A stretch of 64,000 nt of DNA from Cyanophora paradoxa CCMP329 (lineage: Eukaryota > Plantae > Glaucophyta). The translations under genes and the position numbers were made by a program. The notes below the pieces were generated by a model. The model searched no databases and was not told where the DNA came from. It was given only the letters and a program-made list of their open reading frames with translations. Position 1 is the first letter of the stretch, and the number at the start of each line of letters is the position of its first letter. The DNA is taken from contig QPMI01000479.1 of NCBI GenBank assembly GCA_004431415.1, forward strand, positions 62,001 to 126,000, written 5' to 3'. Positions 2,440-64,000 of the stretch are shown piece by piece.

Positions 2440-5400
2440 CTACTCGGGGACGGTGCGCATGGCGGAGGAGGCGGTGGCTATAAGGGACCGGCCGCCCATC
2501 ATCGCCTGCCCCGCCCCGTTCGCCCCGCCGCCGCCGCCGCCGCCGCCCCCGCCGTCGCCGCCGCCCGACGCGTAGAGCAGCAGGAGGGCGTCGAGCCGGT
2601 CCTCGCTCGGCGCGCCGTCGCCCGGCGGCGGCGGCGGGTCCGTCGGGCCCGCCGAAATCGAGTTCCGCTGCGAGCGAAGCTTAGCTAGCCAGAAGATACT
2701 AATAATAAGCTTAAGACTTGAGGAGGAGGCACCTTCAGGCGGCGGCCCTGGGGCTGGGGCTGGGGCCGCATGGCGCTGAACGATTGCGCCTTGTCGGTCT
2801 TCCGGCGGGGCGAGCGGCTGCTGTCGCCCCGCGGCGGGTTGGGGCTCGTGCTGAGCTTGCGCCGGGGCGGCGCGTCTAAGGACGAGGCGGCGGCGGAGAA
2901 GGCGGAGGGGGCGAGGGCGGAGGGGGCGGCGGGCCCGGAGCCGAGGCCCGAATCCAGCGAGAGGGGTACCCCCGCCTTTCCGTTGGTGGGGGTAGTGGGC
3001 CCGTCGTGGTTGTGCGAGACCACGGCGTTCAGGCGGCTGCAGGCGTCGGGCGCCCGTGTGAGAGCGGCGTGGGAGGGCGGGCGGGCGGGCCCGGATCCCG
3101 CGTGGCGAGAAGGCGCCCTCTAGTAGCCGTCCCTCTAGCACTAGGCCTCGGCCGCGCTCCATCCATCTAATCTGCCCCCTTCTTGCCTCGCTCGCTCGCT
3201 CGCACCTGTTCACATGGGGGAGGCTCGGAAGCGAGGCCGGCGCCGCGGAGCCCGCCGCGGAGGGCGAGCCCACCCCGTTCGCTGCAAGGCCGTCCGAGGT
3301 GGGCTGGGGCTGGGACGGGGGCGGCCGCTGCCTCCTCGACTGCTGCGGGCGGGGGCGGGCAGGAGGGAAGTCGGTGGGTGAGGCGGGGAGGTTGGATTGG
3401 GGGACGGGGGTACGGGAGCGGGAGGGTGCGCGCAAGGGGTGGGGCCAAAGAAGCCTAGAGAGCGGCGGAGGCAGGCGCGGCTAGTAGCGCGCAGGGGACC
3501 GAGAGTGGCTAGCTAGCTCGTTTGGCGGGCGCTCGCTTGGTAGGTAGGATGGCTCTAAAAGCCTCCCTGCCGCTCTAGGCGGCGCGCTCCCCTGGCCCGT
3601 TCCTCGCTTGGCGGGCGGGCGCGGGCGCGGGCGGCGGAGGGGGCGCAGCTAGTACTTGCGAGGTGGACTACGCGTGGCTAGCTAGCTCGCTTGCGGGGGC
3701 GGGCGGGGGCGCACGAGGTGGAGGCGCATCTCGATGACGGCCTTGGCGAGGGACTCGTTGTCCCGCGTCAGCCGCGCCACCTTCCGCTCCAGCTCCGCCA
3801 CGCGCTGCCCGCGCCCTTGTGAGTGAGGAGAGCCAAAGAGAGCTTGGCGGAGGGGGCTAGTGGGCTGTAGGTAAGGAGAGCCGCCGCGCGGGCAGATGGA
3901 AGTCAAGCAGGAGGCGGCGGCGACCAGTCAAGCATGGAGCTAGTCAAGCCGAGCTGGTCGGCCCGGTGCGGAGGAGGGGGCGGGGAAGAGGCGGCGGAAT
4001 GGCGACGGCGACGGAGAGGGCGCGTGTGCTTAAGCGTCCGAGGGCTTCGAAGGAAGGGACCGGAAAGAAAGTCGACGGGAGGGCGCGGGCGGGGCGCACG
4101 CGGGCGGGGGCGGCGGTGGCGGCTAGTCAAGCTTAATCGAGCTAGGCTGGGAGCTAGTGAAGCCAGGCTTTTCGGCTCGGCCCGGCGCGGCCCGGCGCGG
4201 GGGCGGGGGCGGGGGCGGGCAGGGCGGACGCGGTCGGAGGCGGCGGCGAGGGCGGCCGCCTCGTTCCGGAAGCGCTCCTCCAGCTCCCGCAGCCGCGCCT
4301 GCCAAGCAAGCGAAAGGGGCGGACCGGGGCCGGTCAGAGCGAGCGGGCGGGCGGGCCGGGGCACGGCCCGCCTCGGCCTCTCGGCCCTTGGCCCAGCCTC
4401 TCGGCCGAGCGGGGCGGGGCGGGGCGCGCCTGGGCGATGGCGGCAGTGCCGCGGGCGAGCTCCAGGCTCGCCGCCTCCTCCCGCGCCTGCCGCCGCCCGC
4501 CAGGTCAGCCAAAGCATTGAAGACTAGGCTGGTTAAGCTTCTTTAGCCCGGAAGAGGCGCCGGGGAGCCAGCTGGCTAGCCGGCCGGACGGCACCTTCTT
4601 GAGCTCGGCCTCGGTGGCGGCGGCGGCCTCCCTGAGGCGCGCCATCTCCGCCTCGTGCCGCGCCCGCTTCTCCTCGTCCGCCTTCGCCGCCAGCTTGAAG
4701 ATGTTCCGCTGCAAAAGGCGAGGGGCGCGGGGCGTGTGAGAGAGAGGGAGGGGGGCGGAGGAGGGGCCGCGCTCACCCGGAAGCTGCTGTCTGCGCGCGC
4801 GCGCACACACACAGAGACAAGTCAGCTCTGCCGTCGCAGCCCAGCCCAGCCCAGCCCGGCCTTGCCAAGCCCAGCCCTTAGCCAGGCCCAGTCCAGCCCG
4901 TCCCGGCCCGTCCCGGCCCGGCCCGGCCCGGCCCGGCCCGGCCGCCCGGGCGCACCCTTGAGCTTCTTGCGGAGGACGTCGACCTCCTCGTCCAGCGCCT
5001 CCTTCACCGCCTGCGAAGCGGGGGTGAGGCTAGGCTAGGCTTTGGGTGAGGCAGGACCGCAGCAGGCTCGAGCTAGGAGGGAGGGGGGAGCGCTAGGAGG
5101 TCAAAGCGCGCGCCAAGGGCGCCAAGGGCGCCGGCGTGAGGCCCCGGCCGATCCGCAGCAGGAAAGGGTGGGGAGGGGGCCGGGGAAGCGGCATTCGTGG
5201 GGGATTTGTGGGGACGCGGCATTGGGCTTCGGTTTGAAGGGAGGGGGGAAAGGGGGGAACTCGGCGGGGGGTACGTGCGCACGGAGAAGAGCTCGGAGTG
5301 CTTCTCCTGCTCGTAGGCCGTCCCCTCCGCCAGCTTCTCCTGCGCCTGCTCGCCCAGGGTAAGGTAGATTTCATTCTAGAGAGCCTTGTTATAGCTTGGC

Positions 5401-51205: not shown

Positions 51206-51580
51206 CTAGATCTTGAGGTCCGCTGAGGCTATAGCTAGAGGTGTCGATCGCGCGATATCGATCGCGTGCGCGATATCGATCGCGAGCTCTTATGTATATA
51301 ATTAATTATAAGCTTCCGGAACAGAAGCTTCAGCGCTGAGGTATACGTACGTGCGCTTCGCCGAGGCGAACAGAAGATCGCGCCCTGCTGCAAGTTAAAA
51401 TTATAATTACCCGTATTATGGGCCGTATACGCGTAGCCGGCGCACTGCGGCACTGCCGCACTGGCCCAGTGGCGGCAGTGCGGCACTGCGGCACTGCGGA
51501 TCGAAGGGGGTAGGGGTAGGGGGTGGCCCGCCCGGCCCCAATTGCAAAAGCGAAACTGACGTATAAACGGACCAGAAGAG

Positions 51581-51675
51581 ACACATATTGAAAAACGAAT
51601 TTAAATCCCTCGTTCATCTCGATCGCTTCGCGATCTCGATTCACTCTGGATTTAAATTCGTTTTTCAATATGTGT
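51581..51675 (-). repeat. 95-nt terminal imperfect palindrome (hairpin), copy 1
   Basis: 28-bp perfect arms 51581-51608 / 51648-51675, a 12+12 partly paired segment, GATCGC/GCGATC stem and 3-nt loop. Confidence 0.95.
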
Positions 51676-51996
51676 TAATTTAACTACTAAAATACATATT
51701 TATCGATTAATTTCTTTAACTTTTTATGCAAACTTTGTATAAATTAATGCAAACTTTGTATTAAAAATGATAAACGCGTTTAATTTAATGCATATTCACG
51801 ATTGATTCGATCGATATTATATCGATATATTATGTTCTTTGTCGATTACATATATAACTTCGATTGATTAACATTAAACTACTTAAAGAACGATATAATC
51901 GCGATTAATTCGCATAAATTCGCATAAATTCGCATAAACTCGATATATCTCTCTGGTATTGAAGTAGACCACCGCCCATTCTGTATCGAAAAACGC

Positions 51997-52260
51997 AAAA
52001 AGTGTCACAGAGTTGCATCATGTCCAATTAAACAATCGATGGAATTGCGGATTTACATTTTTGCACCGAAAAAGTGTCACAGAGTTGCATTATGTCCAAT
52101 TAAACAATTGAAGAGATTGCGCGATTTTCTATTGGAATATATCGGAACTGCATCACGTCCAATTAAACAATCGATGAGATTGCGGATTTACATTTTTGCA
52201 CCGAAAAAGTGTCACAGAGTTGCATGGTCTCCAATTGATCAATCGATTAGATTGCAGATG
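51997..52260. repeat. Subterminal imperfect tandem repeats (about 63-72 bp, four cores)
   Basis: Recurring aaaaagtgtcacagagttgcat..tccaattaaacaatcgat..attgc; repeated at about 58778-59040. Confidence 0.85.
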
Positions 52261-52368
52261 TTCTATAAAACAGAATAAATGAAATCAAGTGTGACAGATA
52301 GTATTCAAATGATATTCAGTAAGATATATTTCTGTTTTTGAGAAGAGTAGTAAGGGGGGCAGAATGTC

Positions 52369-52804
52369 TGTGACGCCTGTGACGGCTGTGACGCCTGTTT
52401 TCAGAAGTCTGTCATTTTTGAAAATTTTAAAAAGTTTGAAAGTAGGCGTCACAGGCGTCACAGGCGTCACACTCAATTAATTTAGGTGTCACAGCGAAAT
52501 TGCAGACCATTTCCAGTAAGACAACTTCGCATTTTCGGAAAGGTGGATTAATGGATAGTGTTTTGTAGGTGTCAGAGGTGTCACAAGACGGATTTCAGTA
52601 AGACAAGAATATATTTTTGAATATCTCAGTAAGAGAAAGAGATTCCATTTTTAATTGGGTGTGACGCCTGTGACGGCTGTGACGGCTGTTTTAAGAAGTC
52701 TGTCATTTTTGAAAATTTTAAAAAGTTTGAAAGTAGGCGTCACAGGCGTCACAGGCGTCACAGTCAATTAAAGAGGCGTCACAGTCAATTAAATAGGTGT
52801 CACA
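52369..52804. promoter_or_regulatory. Duplicated inverted iteron-like array (putative replication origin), copy 1
   Basis: TGTGAC at 52369/52378/52387, AT-rich spacer, GTCACA at 52448/52457/52466. The module is repeated 291 bp later (52660-52762) with extra GTCACA at 52778 and 52799. Confidence 0.6.
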
Positions 52805-52863
52805 CCCGATTATCTGACCATTTTCAGTAAGACCATCTGAAATTCTGAATTTCTCAGTGTCAA

Positions 52864-53265
52864 CTAACTCGGAAATCGCAATACTCTATGTTTCTCCGAT
52901 TTCTCCAACCCTGAAAACACACCTGTTATTCTCTCATCTATCTCATGAGATACTCTCGTGGTTTTCCTCTCTGCTTCTAATCCACAACTGAATATATCAA
53001 TCGCCAACATACCTTCATTTGAGTAACAATGAGCAGTGCAATGGCTCTCATCCAGCAGAAGAACCATTGCAAAACCAGGAGGAGAAATACCACCATCGAA
53101 AATCTCGCAATGCTTGTGAACTACTCGAATACCTTGCTCTTGAATAATAGTTTGCAAGAACTGCATTAACCACCTGGTTGTTGTCTCCAAGTCCTCCATT
53201 CCTACTGCTAATTGGGTTCTGAATTTGTAATCCAGCATCACATGGAAACCTCGATGAGTATTCAT
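52864..53265 (-). CDS. speD: S-adenosylmethionine decarboxylase proenzyme, short prokaryotic/viral class 1B type
   Basis: 133 aa; GFAMVLLLDESHCTAHCYSNEGMLAIDIFSCG matches the ESH self-cleavage (pyruvoyl) motif and the D.F.CG motif. Confidence 0.88.
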   Translation of the reverse strand: MNTHRGFHVMLDYKFRTQLAVGMEDLETTTRWLMQFLQTIIQEQGIRVVHKHCEIFDGGISPPGFAMVLLLDESHCTAHCYSNEGMLAIDIFSCGLEAERKTTRVSHEIDERITGVFSGLEKSEKHRVLRFPS

Positions 53266-53305
53266 TTATGAATAATTTAGAAAAATTAAAAACGCGAATG
53301 GTAGA

Positions 53306-53455
53306 ATGCGAACCATCTTAGCAAGAGTGCTACCTTATGAGTTGGTGGATATCATTCTGCTGCACTACCACAAGACCTGTCCCAGCTGCTTTGACACATG
53401 CATAATCACAAAGGGAAAATGGGGAAAGATTCTCATTTCTCTCTCAAAGATCTAA
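53306..53455 (+). CDS. 49-aa ORF with F-box-like LPxELxxxIL start and CxxC
   Basis: MRTILARVLPYELVDIILLHYHKTCPSCFDTC..; fills the gap between neighbours and its TAA overlaps the TAG of the convergent gene. Below the ORF-track cutoff. Confidence 0.5.
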   Translation: MRTILARVLPYELVDIILLHYHKTCPSCFDTCIITKGKWGKILISLSKI

Positions 53456-53724
53456 TCGAAATATAATACTACTGGTTTATCATCTATCACGATTCCTGAT
53501 GTCGTCTTTTTTCTATATGCATGAGAGGATTTCTTGTTGCATTCTCTGCATCCACTTCCCCTTACATGATTAAATGGGTAGGTTTGCAGGATCTTGTTGC
53601 ATTTAAGGCATCTAACAGAGACCTTCTCTTGTGCTTTCTTATAGACTGTCTCACTATAATCGAATTTAGCATCACCATGAACCATCATTGCAGATTCTAT
53701 GAATTTCTTTGTTTTATCATCCAT
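53452..53724 (-). CDS. Stand-alone Zn-ribbon protein (DUF723/CapR-like module of viral homing-endonuclease-type proteins)
   Basis: FIESAMMVHGDAKFDYSETVY..KVSVRCLKCNKILQTYPFNHVRGSGCREC. Confidence 0.7.
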   Translation of the reverse strand: MDDKTKKFIESAMMVHGDAKFDYSETVYKKAQEKVSVRCLKCNKILQTYPFNHVRGSGCRECNKKSSHAYRKKTTSGIVIDDKPVVLYFD

Positions 53725-53753
53725 CCCTCTCTCTATATATATACCTGAGATTT

Positions 53754-54583
53754 CTATGGAGCAGTATCCTGTCCGAAAATGGGGAAGTAGCGATTTGTGC
53801 CGTAATATTCTGCATATGTATTCTGTTTTGCAATAGCATCGGTTCTCTCAGCATAGAGAATGCATTTGTAGATACCAAACCTGGTGGCTCTCACCAAGAA
53901 CTGGTAATCTTCAAGACCGAAATTCACTCCATGATAAGCAATTCCGAAATTGTCATATGGCGTGATCACAACTGCAATATTTGGGGTTCCACCCTCTACT
54001 TGACAGACAGCATAAACATCTGGTGGGATATCGACAACCACCTTGTAGTGGTCACCAATCTCAACAAGAGAATCAACTACTGATGTCTGCTCATTCACAA
54101 CAATTGGGAAGATCTTGATAATATATGGTGCATTCATACTGGGGACATAGGTGCGAATTCTGGTGTTGGGATCAATGGGATTGGGTTGATCATTTACGAA
54201 AAGAGGCGCACCAACAGCTCCACCAATCCGAAGACCATCACCAATATATGCTCCCCCGTTTTGCAGTTAATAGCTCCCGACCGAGATTCAAAAGAATAAG
54301 TAGAAAGAGGATCACCATAACTGTCTGGGTCTCCATAGTGGGCAGAAAAGTTTGCATTTGTGACAAGGAGTTTCGTTGTCTTAACTATACCATTATTTTT
54401 ATCACACCTGAGTTCTTGCAATCTCAGTTTGTGGGTGGAACCAAATGTATTCATTGTGGGTTGCACTTCTGTGGATTGGAGACCTTCTACATCATCAAAG
54501 GTAGCATGCTGCAAAACGTGATTTGCAGGTGCTGCTAATGAGAGTTGGGGTGTAATAATTCGTTCTGGTATTGGGGCAGCCAT
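53754..54583 (-). CDS. Putative virion protein A (276 aa), split here by a 1-nt homopolymer deletion near 54253
   Basis: Intact in copy 2 (60533-61363); C5 versus C6 run. Paralogous to the adjacent 291-aa ORF. Confidence 0.65.
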
Positions 54584-54584
54584 T

Positions 54585-55460
54585 TTACATTAAAGTGATA
54601 TATAATTTATGGGTTGGGTCATCAATCACATCTGGTTCCTGGTAAAACCCTGTTGTGAAGATATCTGCAACGTTTACCCCTCGAAGTGCCGAAACAGCTG
54701 CTATATCTGTCCTCAGTCCCATAATCATAGTATTGTAAACTCCAACCTCAGTTACAAACAAATCATAGGTAAATGTCAAATTGTTATAAACACAATATCC
54801 TCGACCGAAATGGTTTGATGCTTGAACAAAGAATAGGTAATTATGACCTGTTTGATTGTTGTTTGCTCTGCACATAGATAGCATTGCTGTGGGAAGCGGA
54901 ATATTTCTTCTTACTCGATCAGTTCCTGTTATAATAACCAATTCCGAATTTTCAAGAGTGACAGAGGAAGCAACATAGAAATGTAGAAAAGGTTGCTGTG
55001 CAACTGGTGTATAGAAACGTATTCGTTGGGGATTCTCTACATTTTGTTCAAGAGTATCTGGGACATCATTATACGAAATGGAGGATGAGAGTTGACCTGA
55101 CACTCTGCAACCTCCCCCAATAAATGCTCCTCCTGATCTCACAGTAACAGCAGCAGTATTCTTATCGAAATCAAGGGCTTTTAAATCTACACTGTATGCA
55201 TCAGGACCTCCATTTGTCGGTTGAAAGAAGTTAGCATTTGTTACAAGTAGTCGTGTGGTTTTAACTACACCCGAATTCTTATCGGCTCGGAGTTCTTTTA
55301 CACGAATCATCGAGTTTTTATCAAAGGAGTTACCATTAGAATTGGGTCTCTCTGTGGATTCTAAACCGCGAACTTCATCATTAACTTCATGTTGTCGAAA
55401 GTGCATAGCTGGCGATCCAAGCGAATAAATGGGCAGTTGAACTCGATTGTATTCACCCAT
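54585..55460 (-). CDS. Putative virion protein B (291 aa), paralog of protein A
   Basis: Shares ELRxDKNxGxVKTTxLLVTNANF and GGAxIGxGxRxxG with protein A. Its stop abuts the next ATG. Differences between copies are mostly synonymous. Confidence 0.7.
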   Translation of the reverse strand: MGEYNRVQLPIYSLGSPAMHFRQHEVNDEVRGLESTERPNSNGNSFDKNSMIRVKELRADKNSGVVKTTRLLVTNANFFQPTNGGPDAYSVDLKALDFDKNTAAVTVRSGGAFIGGGCRVSGQLSSSISYNDVPDTLEQNVENPQRIRFYTPVAQQPFLHFYVASSVTLENSELVIITGTDRVRRNIPLPTAMLSMCRANNNQTGHNYLFFVQASNHFGRGYCVYNNLTFTYDLFVTEVGVYNTMIMGLRTDIAAVSALRGVNVADIFTTGFYQEPDVIDDPTHKLYITLM

Positions 55461-55509
55461 TGCTTCTTTTACTAAGAAGGATAGAAAAATAAAGGAGAAT
55501 CTAAGTTAA

Positions 55510-58361
55510 TTATGGTATTCCATATGCTGTCCAATGGATTGTGCAAGTGATACTACGACTTTCAGATAGAGTAGGGGATGCTATGAATGTCACATAAATT
55601 GTTGTATATGTAGATGTGGAGTTTGAGATTCCAATTCTAAAATCTACATCCCCGGGGTTTGTTGCAGGAGTTCCTTGAAGAGTGGCATTTACAACAGGTG
55701 TTTGTGTGTAAAAAGCAGGATTCCAATTTAAAACATATGCATGCTGTGTTCTCTGACCCGCGCTTATCACACCACTTGTAGCTTCGTATTTTCCTGATTT
55801 GAAACGTCTTTCTATATCAGACCAAGTTGGAAGTTGGCTAATTGTATTGGTGGTTCCCGAATTCATTGCATAAAATGCTCTTGCATAAGCATTTCCGCGA
55901 CAGAGTAGGGTTTTATCATAGAAGTTTGCTGAATTGTGGAAGAACCAAGTTTCCTCATTTGTAGGCGATGCAGGGGCTACTATTTGACCTGATCCTACAT
56001 ACATAGTATTATTTGCAGTGATTGTATTGGCTGTGAATGGGTCTAAACTTGGGAGATCTGTGATTTCTGATTTAGTATGAGTATGGGCGAAATCTGTAAT
56101 ATTTGCCTTTGTGTGAGTATGGGCAAAGTCGGTGATATCTGATTTAGTGTGAGAGTGAGGTCCGACAGTTGTAGAAGCTGTTGGTTTCCCATAAATGTTA
56201 TCCCAATGCAAGAAGCCGCTATGTGAGGATACAGTGGGGTTCTTGCTCCAACCTACAAGACCCACAAGGTAAATCCTTCCTATTCGCCCTTGAACACCCA
56301 CTTTACTCAGCCCTTCACAATTCACTCCGACATATTGCCTATACTCTACACTTGGGTCACTACCAGGAGAATAAGCATTTACTCTCGAAAGTGTATAAGA
56401 ATTCGTTGATGGATAAACTCCCACAACATCGAAGTATCTGCTATTATATTGACACACATAGAAGATATAGCATGTTTTCATTCCCGCAGGGACAGTCCAT
56501 AACATCTTGTAGCCACTACAATCTTCATCACCAGAAGCCCATGTGTTTGCTCCTGAGTAAGGAGATATAAATGTGAAAAATCTCCAATCGCCTGTGCGAT
56601 CTGTTGAAAGACCATTTGTGGCATCAAAGTTGATGGGGGATGTGTATGTTGGTTTATTTATCAGATCATCGTAATTTCCTGTCGTTGCAACAGTTGCAAG
56701 ATTAGGTCTATCTGTGATATTTGACCAAGCATGAGTATGGGTTGCAGGAGGGAATGTTAAAGGTTTATCTGTGATATTGTTCCATGCATGACTGTGAGTT
56801 TGAAGTGCAACACCCAATTCGGTTTCATCTATATAATTTTTGCTTTGCAGGTAATCGTCTGTGACCACACCTGAAAGGGTCTCGTTGTGCAGGTTTTTAG
56901 CCGCCATTCTCTGATTGGCTTCAATAGCCCCACCTGATAGCGTTTTAATCCAAGCGATCTCAGCTTTACTGTAATTATCAGTTGGTTGCCCAACAAGTGG
57001 AATATAATTGAGTTTATCCCGAGTGAAAACTATCTTAGGTCTTGATCCATCCAAGCTGCTTACATCTGTCACATTCACATGGACAGCTGCTGAGAAGTCT
57101 TGATAACCCGCAGGATTGGAGGGAACACCGAACCCATCCTTTGGAATATCGTTTTTGTAATAGCTTGTCACATAGATATTCGGGAAAGTGTCACCCGGGT
57201 TAACATACGCCATATCTTGCACTCGGAATTGAGGCAAGCTTCGGACAAATAGAGGTCCTGTCATTGCACTGCCCGCATCAGCCCCTTTGAGGTGAACATA
57301 ATGCTCATTCAAAATAGTTCTTTCCGCAATATTGCAGGATTTATAAAGGGAAACCCCATATTCACAGGTTCGACCTTTGAGAATTCAGGTTGGTTATTGA
57401 TCTCATCCCATGTATGCTCATGGGTTGCAGGTGGGAATATTGAAGGTCTATCTGTGATATTCGACCAAGCATGAGTGTGGTTTTGTATCCATCCCTGCAC
57501 CACATTGGATGTTGTGTAGTTTGGAATTATAGCGTTTGAACCTACTATTAAATTTTTAATGTGGACATAGTCAGAAGAAATTCGCAGATTTTCGGGATAA
57601 TAAAGCGATTGCGTTTTTGGGAAGCCGTAATAATCCTGAATATAGTATCTCACCCTTTGCTTCTCTTCAAACGTTAATGCTCTATTGAAAATGATGTATT
57701 CGGCTATATCACCTATGAAATAGTTAACACCCATCCTACTGAAAGTTGAAGGTGGAAGGTAATTTGTTCCTGTAAAGGTTCCTACATCTTGTCCTCTGAT
57801 TCCAAAGGTTATGCTGTTTGAAGTTATGGTGGTGTCCCAATAATTAGCTGAATAATTATTGGGGATGAACTGTGACTGAGGATTTGTATTAACAGGAAGC
57901 CCATCCATTCTCATTGTTAAAAGGCATTTCGGTGTGGTTTTGGCAGGGTCAGTGTTGGAAGTAATGGGGTAATAGGGTGGATCATAGTAGACATCGATTT
58001 CTGTATTTCCGTCTCCTATTTTCAGCTTTCCCTTCACATTCAGGTTACATGTAACTGTAAGATTGCTACCAATCCAAGCGGATCCTGTGTTGCTACTGTT
58101 TATTGATTTCACTGTTCCATGCACATCCAAATTACTTGTGGTAAGATTGCTTGTTATAATAAGATTTCCATCTATTGTTCCCCCTGATTTTGGCAAGTAG
58201 TTGTTGAGCCACCCTAATGTAACATTACTACTTGTGAGAGGAGCCAAGAGTTCGTTTAATGTAGCTGCACTCACCTTCGAGACAAGCCATCCCTGAACAG
58301 TATTTGAAGAGGTTAGAGGAGCTATTTGAGCATTCACAGTTGCTGTATCAGCCTTAGTAGC
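55510..58361 (-). CDS. Phage-tail-fibre-like protein, 5'-truncated; ORFs 57309-58367 and 55510-57312 are probably one gene
   Basis: YLPKSGGTIDGNL; LamG-like YFIGDIAEYIIFNRALTFEE; repeats H.HAW.NITD.P and HTHTK..ITD; C-terminal F..TPVV.ATL...IHWTAYG (H-type-lectin-like tip). Confidence 0.75.
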
Positions 58362-58456
58362 ACACATATTGAAAAACGAATTTAAATCCCTCGTTCATCT
58401 CGATCGCTTCGCGATCTCGATTCACTCTGGATTTAAATTCGTTTTTCAATATGTGT
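58362..58456 (-). repeat. 95-nt terminal imperfect palindrome, copy 2
   Basis: Identical to 51581-51675. Confidence 0.95.
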
Positions 58457-59149
58457 TAATTTAACTACTAAAATACATATTTATCGATTAATTTCTTTAA
58501 CTTTTTATGCAAACTTTGTATAAATTAATGCAAACTTTGTATTAAAAATGATAAACGCGTTTAATTTAATGCATATTCACGATTGATTCGATCGATATTA
58601 TATCGATATATTATGTTCTTTGTCGATTACATATATAACTTCGATTGATTAACATTAAACTACTTAAAGAACGATATAATCGCGATTAATTCGCATAAAT
58701 TCGCATAAATTCGCATAAACTCGATATATCTCTCTGGTATTGAAGTAGACCACCGCCCATTCTGTATCGAAAAACGCAAAAAGTGTCACAGAGTTGCATC
58801 ATGTCCAATTAAACAATCGATGGAATTGCGGATTTACATTTTTGCACCGAAAAAGTGTCACAGAGTTGCATTATGTCCAATTAAACAATCGATCAGATTG
58901 CGGGATTTTCTATTGGAATATATCGGAACTGCATCACGTCCAATTAAACAATCGATGGAATTGCGGATTTACATTTTTGCACCGAAAAAGTGTCACAGAG
59001 TTGCATGGTCTCCAATTGAACAATCGATTAGATTGCATATGTTCTATAAAACAGAATAATTGAGATCAAGTGTGACAGGTAGTATTCAAATGATATTCAG
59101 TAAGAGATAGTTTTGTTTTTGAGAAAGTCAGTAAGAGGGGTGGAATGTC

Positions 59150-59585
59150 TGTGACGCCTGTGACGGCTGTGACGCCTGTTTTCAGAAGTCTGTCATTTTT
59201 GAAAATTTTAAAAAGTTTGAAAGTAGGTGTCACAGGCGTCACAGGCGTCACACTCAATTAAATTAGGTGTCACAGCGAAATTGCAGACCATTTCCAGTAA
59301 GACAACTTCGCATTTTCGGAAAGGTGGATTAATGGATAGTGTTTTGTAGGTGTCAGAGGTGTCACAAGACGGATTTCAGTAAGACAAGAATATATTTTTG
59401 AATATCTCAGTAAGAGAAAGAGATTCCATTTTTAATTGGGTGTGACGCCTGTGACGGCTGTGACGGCTGTTTTAAGAAGTCTGTCATTTTTGAAAATTTT
59501 AAAAAGTTTGAAAGTAGGCGTCACAGGCGTCACAGGCGTCACAGTCAATTAAAGAGGCGTCACAGTCAATTAAATAGGTGTCACA
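59150..59585. promoter_or_regulatory. Inverted iteron-like array, copy 2
   Basis: Same TGTGAC x3 / GTCACA x3 double module. Confidence 0.6.
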
Positions 59586-59644
59586 CCCGATTATCTGACC
59601 ATTTTCAGTAAGACCATCTGAAATTCTGAATTTCTCAGTGTCAA

Positions 59645-60046
59645 CTAACTCGGAAATCGCAATACTCTATGTTTCTCCGATTTCTCCAACCCTGAAAACA
59701 CACCTGTTATTCTCTCATCTATCTCATGAGATACTCTCGTGGTTTTTCTCTCTGCTTCTAATCCACAACTGAATATATCAATCGCCAACATACCTTCATT
59801 TGAGTAACAATGAGCAGTGCAATGGCTCTCATCCAGCAGAAGAACCATTGCAAAACCAGGAGGAGAAATACCACCATCGAAAATCTCGCAATGCTTGTGA
59901 ACTACTCGAATACCTTGCTCTTGAATAATAGTTTGCAAGAACTGCATTAACCACCTGGTTGTTGTCTCCAAGTCCTCCATTCCTACTGCTAATTGGGTTC
60001 TGAATTTGTAATCCAGCATCACATGGAAGCCTCGATGAGTATTCAT
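59645..60046 (-). CDS. speD: AdoMet decarboxylase proenzyme, copy 2
   Basis: Protein identical to copy 1; two synonymous differences seen. Confidence 0.88.
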   Translation of the reverse strand: MNTHRGFHVMLDYKFRTQLAVGMEDLETTTRWLMQFLQTIIQEQGIRVVHKHCEIFDGGISPPGFAMVLLLDESHCTAHCYSNEGMLAIDIFSCGLEAERKTTRVSHEIDERITGVFSGLEKSEKHRVLRFPS

Positions 60047-60086
60047 TTATGAATAATTTAGAAAAATTAAAAACGCGAATGGTAGA

Positions 60087-60236
60087 ATGCGAACCATCTT
60101 AGCAAGAGTGCTACCTTATGAGTTGGTGGATATCATTCTGCTGCACTACCACAAGACCTGTCCCAGCTGCTTTGACACATGCATAATCACAAAGGGAAAA
60201 TGGGGAAAGATTCTCATTTCTCTCTCAAAGATCTAA
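60087..60236 (+). CDS. 49-aa F-box-like/CxxC ORF, copy 2
   Basis: Identical to 53306-53455. Confidence 0.5.
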   Translation: MRTILARVLPYELVDIILLHYHKTCPSCFDTCIITKGKWGKILISLSKI

Positions 60237-60505
60237 TCGAAATATAATACTACTGGTTTATCATCTATCACGATTCCTGATGTCGTCTTTTTTCTATATG
60301 CATGAGAGGATTTCTTGTTGCATTCTCTGCATCCACTTCCCCTTACATGATTAAATGGGTAGGTTTGCAGGATCTTGTTGCATTTAAGGCATCTAACAGA
60401 GACCTTCTCTTGTGCTTTCTTATAGACTGTCTCACTATAATCGAATTTAGCATCACCATGAACCATCATTGCAGATTCTATGAATTTCTTTGTTTTATCA
60501 TCCAT
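60233..60505 (-). CDS. Zn-ribbon (DUF723-like) protein, copy 2
   Basis: Identical protein to copy 1. Confidence 0.7.
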   Translation of the reverse strand: MDDKTKKFIESAMMVHGDAKFDYSETVYKKAQEKVSVRCLKCNKILQTYPFNHVRGSGCRECNKKSSHAYRKKTTSGIVIDDKPVVLYFD

Positions 60506-60532
60506 CCCTCTCTCTATATATACCTGAGATTT

Positions 60533-61363
60533 CTATGGAGCAGTATCCTGTCCGAAAATGGGGAAGTAGCGATTTGTGCCGTAATATTCTGCATATGTAT
60601 TCTGTTTTGCAATAGCATCGGTTCTCTCAGCATAGAGAATGCATTTGTAGATACCAAACCTGGTGGCTCTCACCAAGAACTGGTAATCTTCAAGACCGAA
60701 ATTCACTCCATGATAAGCAATTCCGAAATTGTCATATGGCGTGATCACAACTGCAATATTTGGGGTTCCACCCTCTACTTGACAGACAGCATAAACATCT
60801 GGTGGGATATCGACAACCACCTTGTAGTGGTCACCAATCTCAACAAGAGAATCAACTACTGATGTCTGCTCATTCACAACAATTGGGAAGATCTTGATAA
60901 TATATGGTGCATTCATACTGGGGACATAGGTGCGAATTCTGGTGTTGGGATCAATGGGATTGGGTTGATCATTTACGAAAAGAGGCGCACCAACAGCTCC
61001 ACCAATCCGAAGACCATCACCAATATATGCTCCCCCCGTTTTGCAGTTAATAGCTCCCGACCGAGATTCAAAAGAATAAGTAGAAAGAGGATCACCATAA
61101 CTGTCTGGGTCTCCATAGTGGGCAGAAAAGTTTGCATTTGTGACAAGGAGTTTCGTTGTCTTAACTATACCATTATTTTTATCACACCTGAGTTCTTGCA
61201 ATCTCAGTTTGTGGGTGGAACCAAATGTATTCATTGTGGGTTGCACTTCTGTGGATTGGAGACCTTCTACATCATCAAAGGTAGCATGCTGCAAAACGTG
61301 ATTTGCAGGTGCTGCTAATGAGAGTTGGGGTGTAATAATTCGTTCTGGTATTGGGGCAGCCAT
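60533..61363 (-). CDS. Putative virion protein A, intact copy
   Basis: Uninterrupted 276-aa ORF. Confidence 0.7.
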   Translation of the reverse strand: MAAPIPERIITPQLSLAAPANHVLQHATFDDVEGLQSTEVQPTMNTFGSTHKLRLQELRCDKNNGIVKTTKLLVTNANFSAHYGDPDSYGDPLSTYSFESRSGAINCKTGGAYIGDGLRIGGAVGAPLFVNDQPNPIDPNTRIRTYVPSMNAPYIIKIFPIVVNEQTSVVDSLVEIGDHYKVVVDIPPDVYAVCQVEGGTPNIAVVITPYDNFGIAYHGVNFGLEDYQFLVRATRFGIYKCILYAERTDAIAKQNTYAEYYGTNRYFPIFGQDTAP

Positions 61364-61386
61364 TTTACATTAAAGTGATATATAAT

Positions 61387-62241
61387 TTATGGGGTTGGGT
61401 CATCAATCACATCTGGTTCCTGGTAAAACCCTGTTGTGAAGATATCTGCAACGTTTACCCCTCGAAGTGCCGAAACAGCTGCTATATCTGTCCTCAGTCC
61501 CATAATCATAGTATTGTAAACTCCAACCTCAGTTACAAACAAATCATAGGTAAATGTCAAATTGTTATAAACACAATATCCTCGACCGAAATGGTTTGAT
61601 GCTTGAACAAAGAATAGGTAATTATGACCTGTTTGATTGTTGTTTGCTCTGCACATAGATAGCATTGCTGTGGGAAGCGGAATATTTCTTCTTACTCGAT
61701 CAGTTCCTGTTATAATAACCAATTCCGAATTTTCAAGAGTGACAGAGGAAGCAACATAGAAATGTAGAAAAGGTTGCTGTGCAACTGGTGTATAGAAACG
61801 TATTCGTTGGGGATTCTCTACATTTTGTTCAAGAGTATCTGGGACATCATTATACGAAATGGAGGATGAGAGTTGACCTGACACTCTGCAACCTCCCCCA
61901 ATAAATGCTCCTCCTGATCTCACAGTAACAGCAGCAGTATTCTTGTCGAAATCTAGGGCTTTCAGGGCAACACTGTAAGCATCAGGACCTCCATTTGTAG
62001 GCTGGAAGAAGTTAGCATTGGTGACAAGAAGTCGAGTTGTTTTAACCACACCAGAATTCTTATCAGCTCTCAGCTCTTTTACTCGAATAATCGAATTTTT
62101 ATCAAAGGAGTTACCATTGGAATTGGGTCTCTCTGTGGATTCTAAACCACGAACCTCATCATTTACTTCATGCTGGCGAAAATGCATTGCAGGGGATCCA
62201 AGGGAATATATAGGCAGTTGAACTCGATTATATTCACCCAT
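61387..62241 (-). CDS. Putative virion protein B, copy 2
   Basis: ATG at 62241 by comparison with copy 1. An extra G near 61391 changes the last residues. Confidence 0.7.
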   Translation of the reverse strand: MGEYNRVQLPIYSLGSPAMHFRQHEVNDEVRGLESTERPNSNGNSFDKNSIIRVKELRADKNSGVVKTTRLLVTNANFFQPTNGGPDAYSVALKALDFDKNTAAVTVRSGGAFIGGGCRVSGQLSSSISYNDVPDTLEQNVENPQRIRFYTPVAQQPFLHFYVASSVTLENSELVIITGTDRVRRNIPLPTAMLSMCRANNNQTGHNYLFFVQASNHFGRGYCVYNNLTFTYDLFVTEVGVYNTMIMGLRTDIAAVSALRGVNVADIFTTGFYQEPDVIDDPTP

Positions 62242-62290
62242 TGCTTCTTTTACTAAGAAGGAAAGAAAAATAATGCGAAATATGCATTTA

Positions 62291-64000
62291 TTATGGGATT
62301 CCATATGCTGTCCAATGGATTGTGCAAGTAATACTTCGACTTTCAGATAGAGTAGGGGATGCTATGAATGTCACATAAATTGTTGTATAGGTAGATGTGG
62401 AGTTTGAGATTCCAATTCTAAAATCTACATCCCCGGGGTTTGTTGCAGGAGTTCCTTCAAGTGTGGCAGTTACAACAGGTGTCTTAGTGTAAAAAGCAGG
62501 ATCCCAATTCAAAACCTGTGCATGCTGTGTTCTCTGACCTGCACTTATAGCACCACTGTAAGCTTGAAATTTTCCTGACTTAAATCGTCTTTCTATATCA
62601 TACCAAGTTGGAAGTTGGCTAATTGTATTGGTGGTTCCCGAATTCATTGCATAAAATGCCCTTGCATAAGCATTTCCTTTGCAGAGCAAGGTTTTATCAT
62701 AGAAGTTTGCTGAATTGTGGAAGAACCAAGTTTCCTCATTTGTAGGCGATGCAGGGGCTACTATTTGACCTGATCCTACATACATAGTATTATTTGCAGT
62801 GATTGTATTGGCTGTGAATGGGTCTAAACTTGGGAGATCTGTGATTTCTGATTTAGTATGAGTATGGGCGAAATCTGTAATATTTGCCTTTGTGTGAGTA
62901 TGGGCAAAGTCGGTGATATCTGATTTAGTGTGAGAGTGAGGTCCGACAGTTGTAGAAGCTGTTGGTTTCCCATAAATGTTATCCCAATGCAAGAAGCCGC
63001 TATGTGAGGATACAGTGGGGTTCTTGCTCCAACCTACAAGACCCACAAGATAAATCCTTCCTATTCGCCCTTGAACACCCACTTTACTCAGCCCTTCACA
63101 ATTCACTCCGACATATTGCCTATACTCTACACTTGGGTCACTACCAGGAGAATAAGCATTTACTCTCGAAAGTGTATAAGAATTCGTTGATGGATAAACT
63201 CCCACAACATCGAAGTATCTGCTATTATATTGACACACATAGAAGATATAGCATGTTTTCATTCCGCAGGGACAGTCCATAACATCTTGTAGCCACTACA
63301 ATCTTCATCACCAGAAGCCCATGTGTTTGCTCCTGAGTAAGGAGATATAAATGTGAAAAATCTCCAATCGCCTGTGCGATCTGTTGAAAGACCATTTGTG
63401 GCATCAAAGTTGATAGGGGATGTGTATGTTGGTTTATTTATCAGATCATCGTAATTTCCTGTCGTTGCAACAGTTGCAAGATTAGGTCTATCTGTGATAT
63501 TTGACCAAGCATGAGTATGGGTTGCAGGAGGGAATGTTAAAGGTTTATCTGTGATATTGTTCCATGCATGACTGTGAGTTTGAAGTGCAACACCCAATTC
63601 GGTTTCATCTATATAATTTTTGCTTTGCAGGTAATCGTCTGTGACCACACCTGAAAGGGTCTCGTTGTGCAGGTTTTTAGCCGCCATTCTCTGATTGGCT
63701 TCAATAGCCCCACCTGATAGCGTTTTAATCCAAGCGATCTCAGCTTTACTGTAATTATCAGTTGGTTGCCCAACAAGTGGAATATAATTGAGTTTATCCC
63801 GAGTGAAAACTATCTTAGGTCTTGATCCATCCAAGCTGCTTACATCTGTCACATTCACATGGACAGCTGCTGAGAAGTCTTGATAACCCGCAGGATTGGA
63901 GGGAACACCGAACCCATCCTTTGGAATATCGTTTTTGTAATAGCTTGTCACATAGATATTCGGGAAAGTGTCACCCGGGTTAACATACGCCATATCTTGC
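62291..64000 (-). CDS. Fibre-like protein, copy 2 (partial; 1-nt deletion near 63263 splits the ORF)
   Basis: ttccgcagg versus ttcccgcagg in copy 1; otherwise colinear, with a variant C-terminal tip. Confidence 0.72.

Follow-up and report, generated by a model that had tools for sequence, protein, structure and literature searches.

The imperfect palindrome at positions 51581..51675 of the window (the whole 64,000-nt stretch analyzed here) is a real, terminal and selected-looking hairpin. It forms the exact left end of a virus-like element of about 40% GC, compared with about 68% GC in the host. We interpreted it as a self-priming 3' hairpin at the tip of an endogenous polinton-like virus (PLV) or virophage present in many copies, in which fold-back of the - strand probably primes the copying of the genome end.

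A pair-by-pair table of this hairpin (- strand, copy A) showed that 51581-51608 pairs with 51675-51648 in a perfect outer stem of 28 bp, which extends flush to the terminal base of the element. Above it, the 12+12 zone (51609-51620 against 51647-51636) contained five pairs and seven mismatches. All seven were C.T or T.C on the + strand, that is, G.A or A.G on the - strand, where they were arranged in the blocks C-GA-G/C-GA-G, T-GA-A/T-GA-A and a triple, C-AGA-G/C-GAG-G. A 6-bp inner stem (GATCGC) and a 3-nt loop (GAA on the - strand) followed, and the - strand apex read GATC-GCGAAGC-GATC. The numbers of pairs and of one-class mismatches, the block layout and the apex sequence given in the original prediction were all borne out by this table.

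The hairpin had no bulge, every mismatch having an opposed base. In copies A and B (below) alike, pairing ceased from the first base outside 51581 and 51675. The apical GCGAAGC lies at 51625..51631 on the - strand. Between 51581 and 64000, GCGNAGC was found twice on the - strand, at the apices of the two hairpin copies, and not at all on the + strand. An Rfam search returned only 16 sub-threshold matches to miRNA precursors, as generic hairpins do.

The sequence contexts of the mini-hairpin (GCGNAGC) and of tandem sheared G.A pairs (Py-GA-Pu) were thus both present on the - strand. In the available text of PMC13037366, the mini-hairpin is formed only by GNA loops, with a Tm of 70-76 C, and GNA loops closed by C-G are stable by physical measurement; this agrees with the stability that had been claimed for d(GCGAAGC). 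Likewise, the claim that Py-GA-Pu favors tandem sheared G.A pairs agrees with the available text of PMC10085684, where such pairs are described for CGAG and pyrimidine-GA-purine blocks. Very strong stacking for GA-AG steps is described in PMC8163305, as far as its text was available, and CT mismatches are modeled there as weak. Much tighter zipping is predicted for the - strand than for the + strand.

Computed folding energies were -32.9 kcal/mol for the + strand and -34.3 kcal/mol for the - strand, a gap of 1.4 kcal/mol. The corresponding z-scores were -11.2 and -13.75, and none of 200 shuffles was equally stable. The nearest-neighbor model has no sheared pairs and cannot reveal a strand bias; ViennaRNA gave the + and - apices equal energies. 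The strand asymmetry therefore rests on the published physical data and not on the folding performed here. Folding on the - strand only, as first proposed, was an overstatement, because the + strand also forms the 28-bp stem. What stood was the strand bias of the head, with its G.A pairs and GNA loop on the - strand.

If mismatches fell at random at the composition of the element, the post hoc chance of all seven belonging to one class would be 5.8e-6. Under decay of a perfect palindrome, it would be 7e-6 to 6e-8, again calculated post hoc. As an internal control, the other long inverted repeats of the element showed mixed mismatch classes. These figures bear on a neutral origin, in which the hairpin would be a by-product of integration, either an accidental fold-back or a decayed palindrome. 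Accidental annealing is given as an alternative in the available text of a preprint on virophage and PLV ends (bioRxiv 10.64898/2026.07.28.741278). Such an origin is very improbable here in view of the single mismatch class, the presence of the same sequence at many insertions, and a design common to three head types (below).

The first 47 kb of the window, at 61-77% GC per kb, look like intron-rich eukaryotic DNA. The GC content fell gradually to 50% immediately before the hairpin and was about 40% from 51581 on. At 51441-51498, 80 bases upstream of the insertion, the host DNA has a GC-rich inverted repeat built from short repeat units.

The window contained two junctions at which the element boundary was exact, with a GC step of about 0.68 to 0.40. 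The left part of copy A (51581..58361) has 39.5% GC and CpG-poor genes, and is interrupted by the left part of copy B (58362..64000), which continues past the window end. The sequence 51581-57220 recurs at 58362-64000 with 98% identity; the 101 substitutions are patchy, with none in the first 528 bp. Each copy starts with the hairpin's first base, and the hairpin of copy B (58362..58456, - strand) is identical to that of copy A. The terminal position of the hairpin, with the 3' end of the - strand at its base, had been predicted, and the exact junctions and the polarity agree with it. Since the element extends to the right of the hairpin, the - strand has its 3' end at the final stem base.

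The hairpin of copy B sits within a fibre-like gene of copy A, which it cuts. In contigs from all four sequencing runs concerned, this gene continued past 58360 without a hairpin. This showed that copy B is a nested insertion and not a tandem repeat, and a plain 6.78-kb tandem duplication was rejected. The nested-insertion account leaves over a single base, 58361, just before copy B.

Between 55164-55908 and 61945-62689, the differences between the copies were densely clustered, often at intervals of a multiple of three, and long tracts of identity adjoined the clusters. This patchy divergence suggests recombination between element lineages. One-base differences at 54252, 54610 and 56483 / 63263 split one open reading frame in each copy. 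Some of these were also variants in the run contigs, and both assembly error and real decay are possible.

The hairpin is followed by a non-coding repeat zone (51676..52860) with a 10-nt tandem repeat, 107-nt repeats and two long inverted repeats (52369-52471 and 52650-52772). It contained 20 GTCACA/TGTGAC motifs, compared with six in 51.6 kb of host DNA; the two inverted repeats were composed of these units. The repeat at 52650-52772 folded better on the + strand (-44.6 vs -33.3 kcal/mol) through G.T pairs, a bias opposite to that of the terminal hairpin. The zone is likely to be part of a terminal inverted repeat.

All the genes recognized in the element lie on the - strand. The first (52864..53265) encodes an S-adenosylmethionine decarboxylase (AdoMetDC; PF02675, E 6e-11), whose closest relative among those fetched (about 50% identity) came from a giant-virus contig, L122, with NCLDV capsid and D5-like genes. 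This hints at an exchange of genes with a giant virus. The second (53452..53724) encodes a small Zn-finger protein resembling an accessory domain found in viral endonucleases (phrog_681, E 6.6e-11; Pfam DUF4379 below the cut-off).

Two paralogues of 276 and 284 aa, 33% identical, are encoded at 60533..62241, with copy A counterparts at 53754-55460. They share an N-terminal domain with proteins ending in C1q and are likely virion fibre or attachment proteins; the fold model was uninformative (pLDDT 38). A fibre-like protein with phage-tail repeats is encoded at 55510..57264 (PHROG tail/fibre matches to E 2e-9; PTR below the cut-off). Its C-terminus is possibly lectin-like, a lead given by an Atlas H_lectin score of 0.89, with no Pfam match. 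The gene cut by copy B (57309..58361), lacking its 5' part, also had PHROG tail/fibre matches. Phage-like fibres such as these have been described for PLVs (PMC12220804, available text); they are common in PLVs and do not define them.

No double jelly-roll capsid, penton, packaging ATPase, integrase or replicase gene was found among the six open reading frames scanned in the left 6.8 kb. Because the capsid, integrase and replicase genes would lie outside the window, as would the right end and the target-site duplication, the identity of the element as a PLV or virophage is only likely. It does have features expected of an endogenous virus of this kind, namely a GC shift against the host, precise ends and many copies. 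Terminal inverted repeats, a target-site duplication, an RVE or tyrosine integrase and a length of 14-40 kb are further marks of such viruses. Protein searches of viral contigs with the 276-aa protein, its alignment or the AdoMetDC found no related loci, and no homologue of the 284-aa protein was found. Among 80 metagenomic loci with AdoMetDC, no other element gene was detected by tblastn, and the nine that were scanned had no such hairpin.

Fourteen of 24 public runs, all with one and the same organism label, contained at least half of the element's words, and six were compared with the window, as contigs only. Contigs of three of four runs (X3 record 28, X12 record 5, X13 records 11 and 12) matched long stretches of the hairpin without difference, and an assembly artefact was rejected on this ground. 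The listed substitutions start at 51676; the table apparently omits differences within about 30 bases of the end of a contig match, which leaves the stems partly checked. Hairpins of the window type had depths of 2852 (X3), 3655-3698 (X13) and 5278 (X12), compared with 28-101 for flank contigs. By this rough measure, the hairpin exceeded its flanks 39-fold (X13), 52-fold (X12) and 34- to 103-fold (X3). Such depth indicates either tens of copies or DNA that is partly free. Several other flanks also abutted the hairpin base, with loose ends before 51574, 51578, 51579 and 51580 and behind 51679. One 47-nt contig (X12 record 4, depth 1215) had five differences from the window in 51582-51628, and may be either a further (fourth) form of the head or a hairpin that has become partly perfect.

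The arrangement of the end was tested against that of an opened, covalently closed telomere of the poxvirus or chlorovirus type, from a giant-virus-like genome with flip and flop isomers, in which the mismatches would serve packaging. According to the available texts of PMC8956199 and PMC12085832, those telomeres also have an AT-rich hairpin with mismatches and, behind it, tandem repeats. The order hairpin, tandem repeats, genes is that of NCLDV terminal repeats (PMC12085832), vaccinia maturation requires mismatched hairpin ends (PMC8956199), and the best fetched relative of the AdoMetDC is in a giant-virus contig. Those telomeres, however, occur as both flip and flop, whereas in the present case a single orientation was seen and all mismatches were G.A on one strand. 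The orientation was identical in both window copies and at one junction outside the window (X3 record 27), and in two of the four runs (X12 record 5, X13 record 12) unbroken contigs had the same arm linking head and interior; X3 record 28 ends at 51675. Flip/flop isomers were absent from three readable junctions and from the joints listed, a weak test since contigs drop rare forms. No strand-change joint was among the joints listed in the run contigs, and no fold-back (hairpin-closed) contig was among the contig pieces listed, rare forms being dropped here too. A design favoring one strand also fits two equal isomers poorly, and tens of copies with self-nesting would suit a small element better. 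We therefore regard this type of telomere as improbable.

Two further head sequences on an apparently similar stem were found in the run contigs, with tandem GCGNAGC units and purine mismatches on the same strand. Type 2 had depths of 796-1999 in three runs (X2, X3, X12). Its loops were GAA, and at least two tandem GCGAAGC units were read from each side on the - strand; we inferred three units in the whole head. Type 3 was found in one contig (X3, depth 84), with GCGGAGC, GCGTAGC and GCGTAGC (loops GGA, GTA and GTA) between G/A-rich 4-mers. Read as a rod, it had a GNA loop and non-canonical pairs that were all purine-purine or G.T on the - strand. Both types were read by eye from loose ends, and type 3 may sit at an element end. 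They may represent either the other end of the element or the ends of sister families.

Across the heads, the middle base of the loop varied, and the loop G, the loop A and the strand were constant. The strand bias that had been predicted for the head thus recurred in two other sequences. This retention of GNA loops and same-strand purine mismatches by different sequences argues for selection on the fold.

No exact match was found in viral contigs for the 28-nt stem or the 21-nt apex, and none in metagenome contigs for the 31-nt head. The 15-nt apex matched at least 121 viral loci. None of these had a long stem: the best without other mismatches had 12 Watson-Crick pairs, and one of the 121 reached 20 pairs with seven other mismatches. 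In the absence of a long stem around them, these apex matches were attributed to chance.

The triple GCGNAGC occurred in 74 viral loci (L202-L275), a raw count. These included long pure arrays in L206 and L244 and five genomes of 3.6-3.8 kb (L209, L220, L222, L256, L267). In a phage-like viral contig of 92,914 bp (L247), positions 3979-4043 contained three tandem GCGNAGC units with G/A-rich mismatches on a 15-bp AT-rich stem, the design of head types 2 and 3. This intergenic locus lies close to a turn in GC skew, with short direct repeats behind it, and is possibly an origin. The internal position of so similar a head suggested that the design can also work at sites other than genome ends.

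These loci raise another reading, in which the folded strand is a single-strand signal recognized by protein, with a primase or a terminal-protein helper binding the G.A/GNA head and starting synthesis there. The triple GCGNAGC loci, and L247 in particular, with its AT-rich stem near a GC-skew turn and far from the contig end, are consistent with such a signal, and so is the polarity (3' strand). So are the mini-hairpins at the phage G4 and RSF1010 ssiA origins (PMC13037366) and the Tap-bound 3' overhangs of Streptomyces, where sheared G:A pairs close the folded hairpins (PMC4513846), both according to the text available. A perfect 28-bp stem flush with the terminal base, however, would exceed the needs of a binding signal. 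The visible part of the element has no primase or terminal-protein gene, and among the top matches a long unique enclosing stem was found in only one of the 74 loci. We consider a protein-recognized signal rather unlikely.

Of the three mechanisms in the original prediction, self-priming, or an opened hairpin end, fits best. Once the element is released, the 3' end of the - strand would fold onto the 28-bp stem and give a rod with nearly all bases paired. The folded end would be a flush, perfectly paired and nuclease-resistant primer with a tight head, and a hairpin-closed end would result from its extension. Nicking between 51675 and 51676, at the stem base, would restore the same 3'-OH, to be joined to the target at integration. 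Opening and fill-in of the hairpin would follow the joining step. Nick-and-join integration with fill-in would account for the single orientation of the hairpin and for its lying entirely within the element. A protein of replication, packaging or integration probably recognizes the end by its mismatches.

The third of those mechanisms made the folded strand a substrate for a tyrosine recombinase, with crossover at the stem base. Its models, integron attC and CTXphi attP, have extrahelical (bulged) bases, a core-site consensus and a fixed target. Here, the pairing table contained no bulge, whereas attC draws its specificity from extrahelical bases. The flanks varied: no obvious target site was common to those seen, which were biased to those of the window, and one target was the element's own fibre gene. 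The junction at the hairpin base and the strand-biased fold are in keeping with a recombinase, and the available texts of PMC12220804 and PMC10120064 describe the integration of many PLVs by tyrosine recombinases. Terminal palindromes, on the other hand, are linked to RVE integrases in the available text of bioRxiv 10.64898/2026.07.28.741278. A recombinase substrate is thus an unlikely reading, and self-priming remains the one we prefer.

How PLVs and virophages without a protein-primed polymerase copy their ends is an open question, for which the 2026 preprint, in the text available, proposes hairpin priming but rates a neutral accident as equally possible. Mismatches and a loop tuned to the 3'-end strand in three head sequences argue for function and point to the active strand. 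The findings also suggest that such ends are undercounted when screens look for near-perfect palindromes. The hairpin would be a natural example, at the terminus of a eukaryotic virus, of mini-hairpins and predicted sheared G.A pairs. Recurrence of the head module inside a phage may reflect a general design for single-strand origins that perfect-palindrome screens miss.

Parvoviruses have single-stranded DNA genomes of about 4-6 kb and an HUH Rep/NS1 nickase, and the 3' (left-end) hairpin of the autonomous ones is reportedly kept in one (flip) orientation. The present element exceeds 6.8 kb, has fibre genes and integrates, and no HUH nickase was found among the six open reading frames scanned. 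On the other hand, the left end of autonomous parvoviruses is a self-priming 3' terminal hairpin like the one proposed here, and it is likened to Streptomyces ends in the available text of PMC4513846. The same text describes Streptomyces telomeres in which the 3'-end strand folds, strand-specifically, into GNA (GCA) loops closed by sheared G:A. These telomeres differ in belonging to bacterial linear replicons that never integrate, and in having several short palindromes, terminal-protein priming and no long flush stem. The d(GCGNAGC) mini-hairpins of phage G4 and ssiA share the apex motif and a replication context with the present hairpin, but are internal primase signals and not genome tips (PMC13037366, available text).

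The closest placement is that of the terminal palindromes in virophage and PLV subtypes with non-pPolB replicases, for which hairpin priming is proposed (bioRxiv 10.64898/2026.07.28.741278, available text). The palindromes of Halocafeteria seosinensis are likewise at the very tip of low-GC endogenous viruses with nested insertions, and here, too, the palindrome is at the extreme end of the element, adjoining the target. They differ in that the example given is 52 nt long and the word 'mismatch' is absent from the preprint text available. The screen used there required at least 20 bp, no more than four mismatches and a gap of no more than 10; by our reckoning from that text, it would miss the present hairpin, which has seven mismatches. 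The words 'hairpin' and 'palindrom' are absent from two large PLV surveys (PMC10120064, PMC12220804), and no published description of a strand-specific G.A/GNA hairpin end was found in a search with subscription journals mostly outside it.

The kind of end is thus known in print as a proposal, and its strand-specific G.A/GNA design with exchangeable heads is new. As a tentative generalization, integrating dsDNA viruses of protists might use a non-flipping, G.A-zipped and GNA-capped 3' hairpin both as a replication primer and as an integration end, with a conserved stem on which heads are freely exchanged, whether a single rod or a tandem of three mini-hairpins. Such an end would be the eukaryotic-virus counterpart of the Streptomyces telomeres and the parvovirus left ends.
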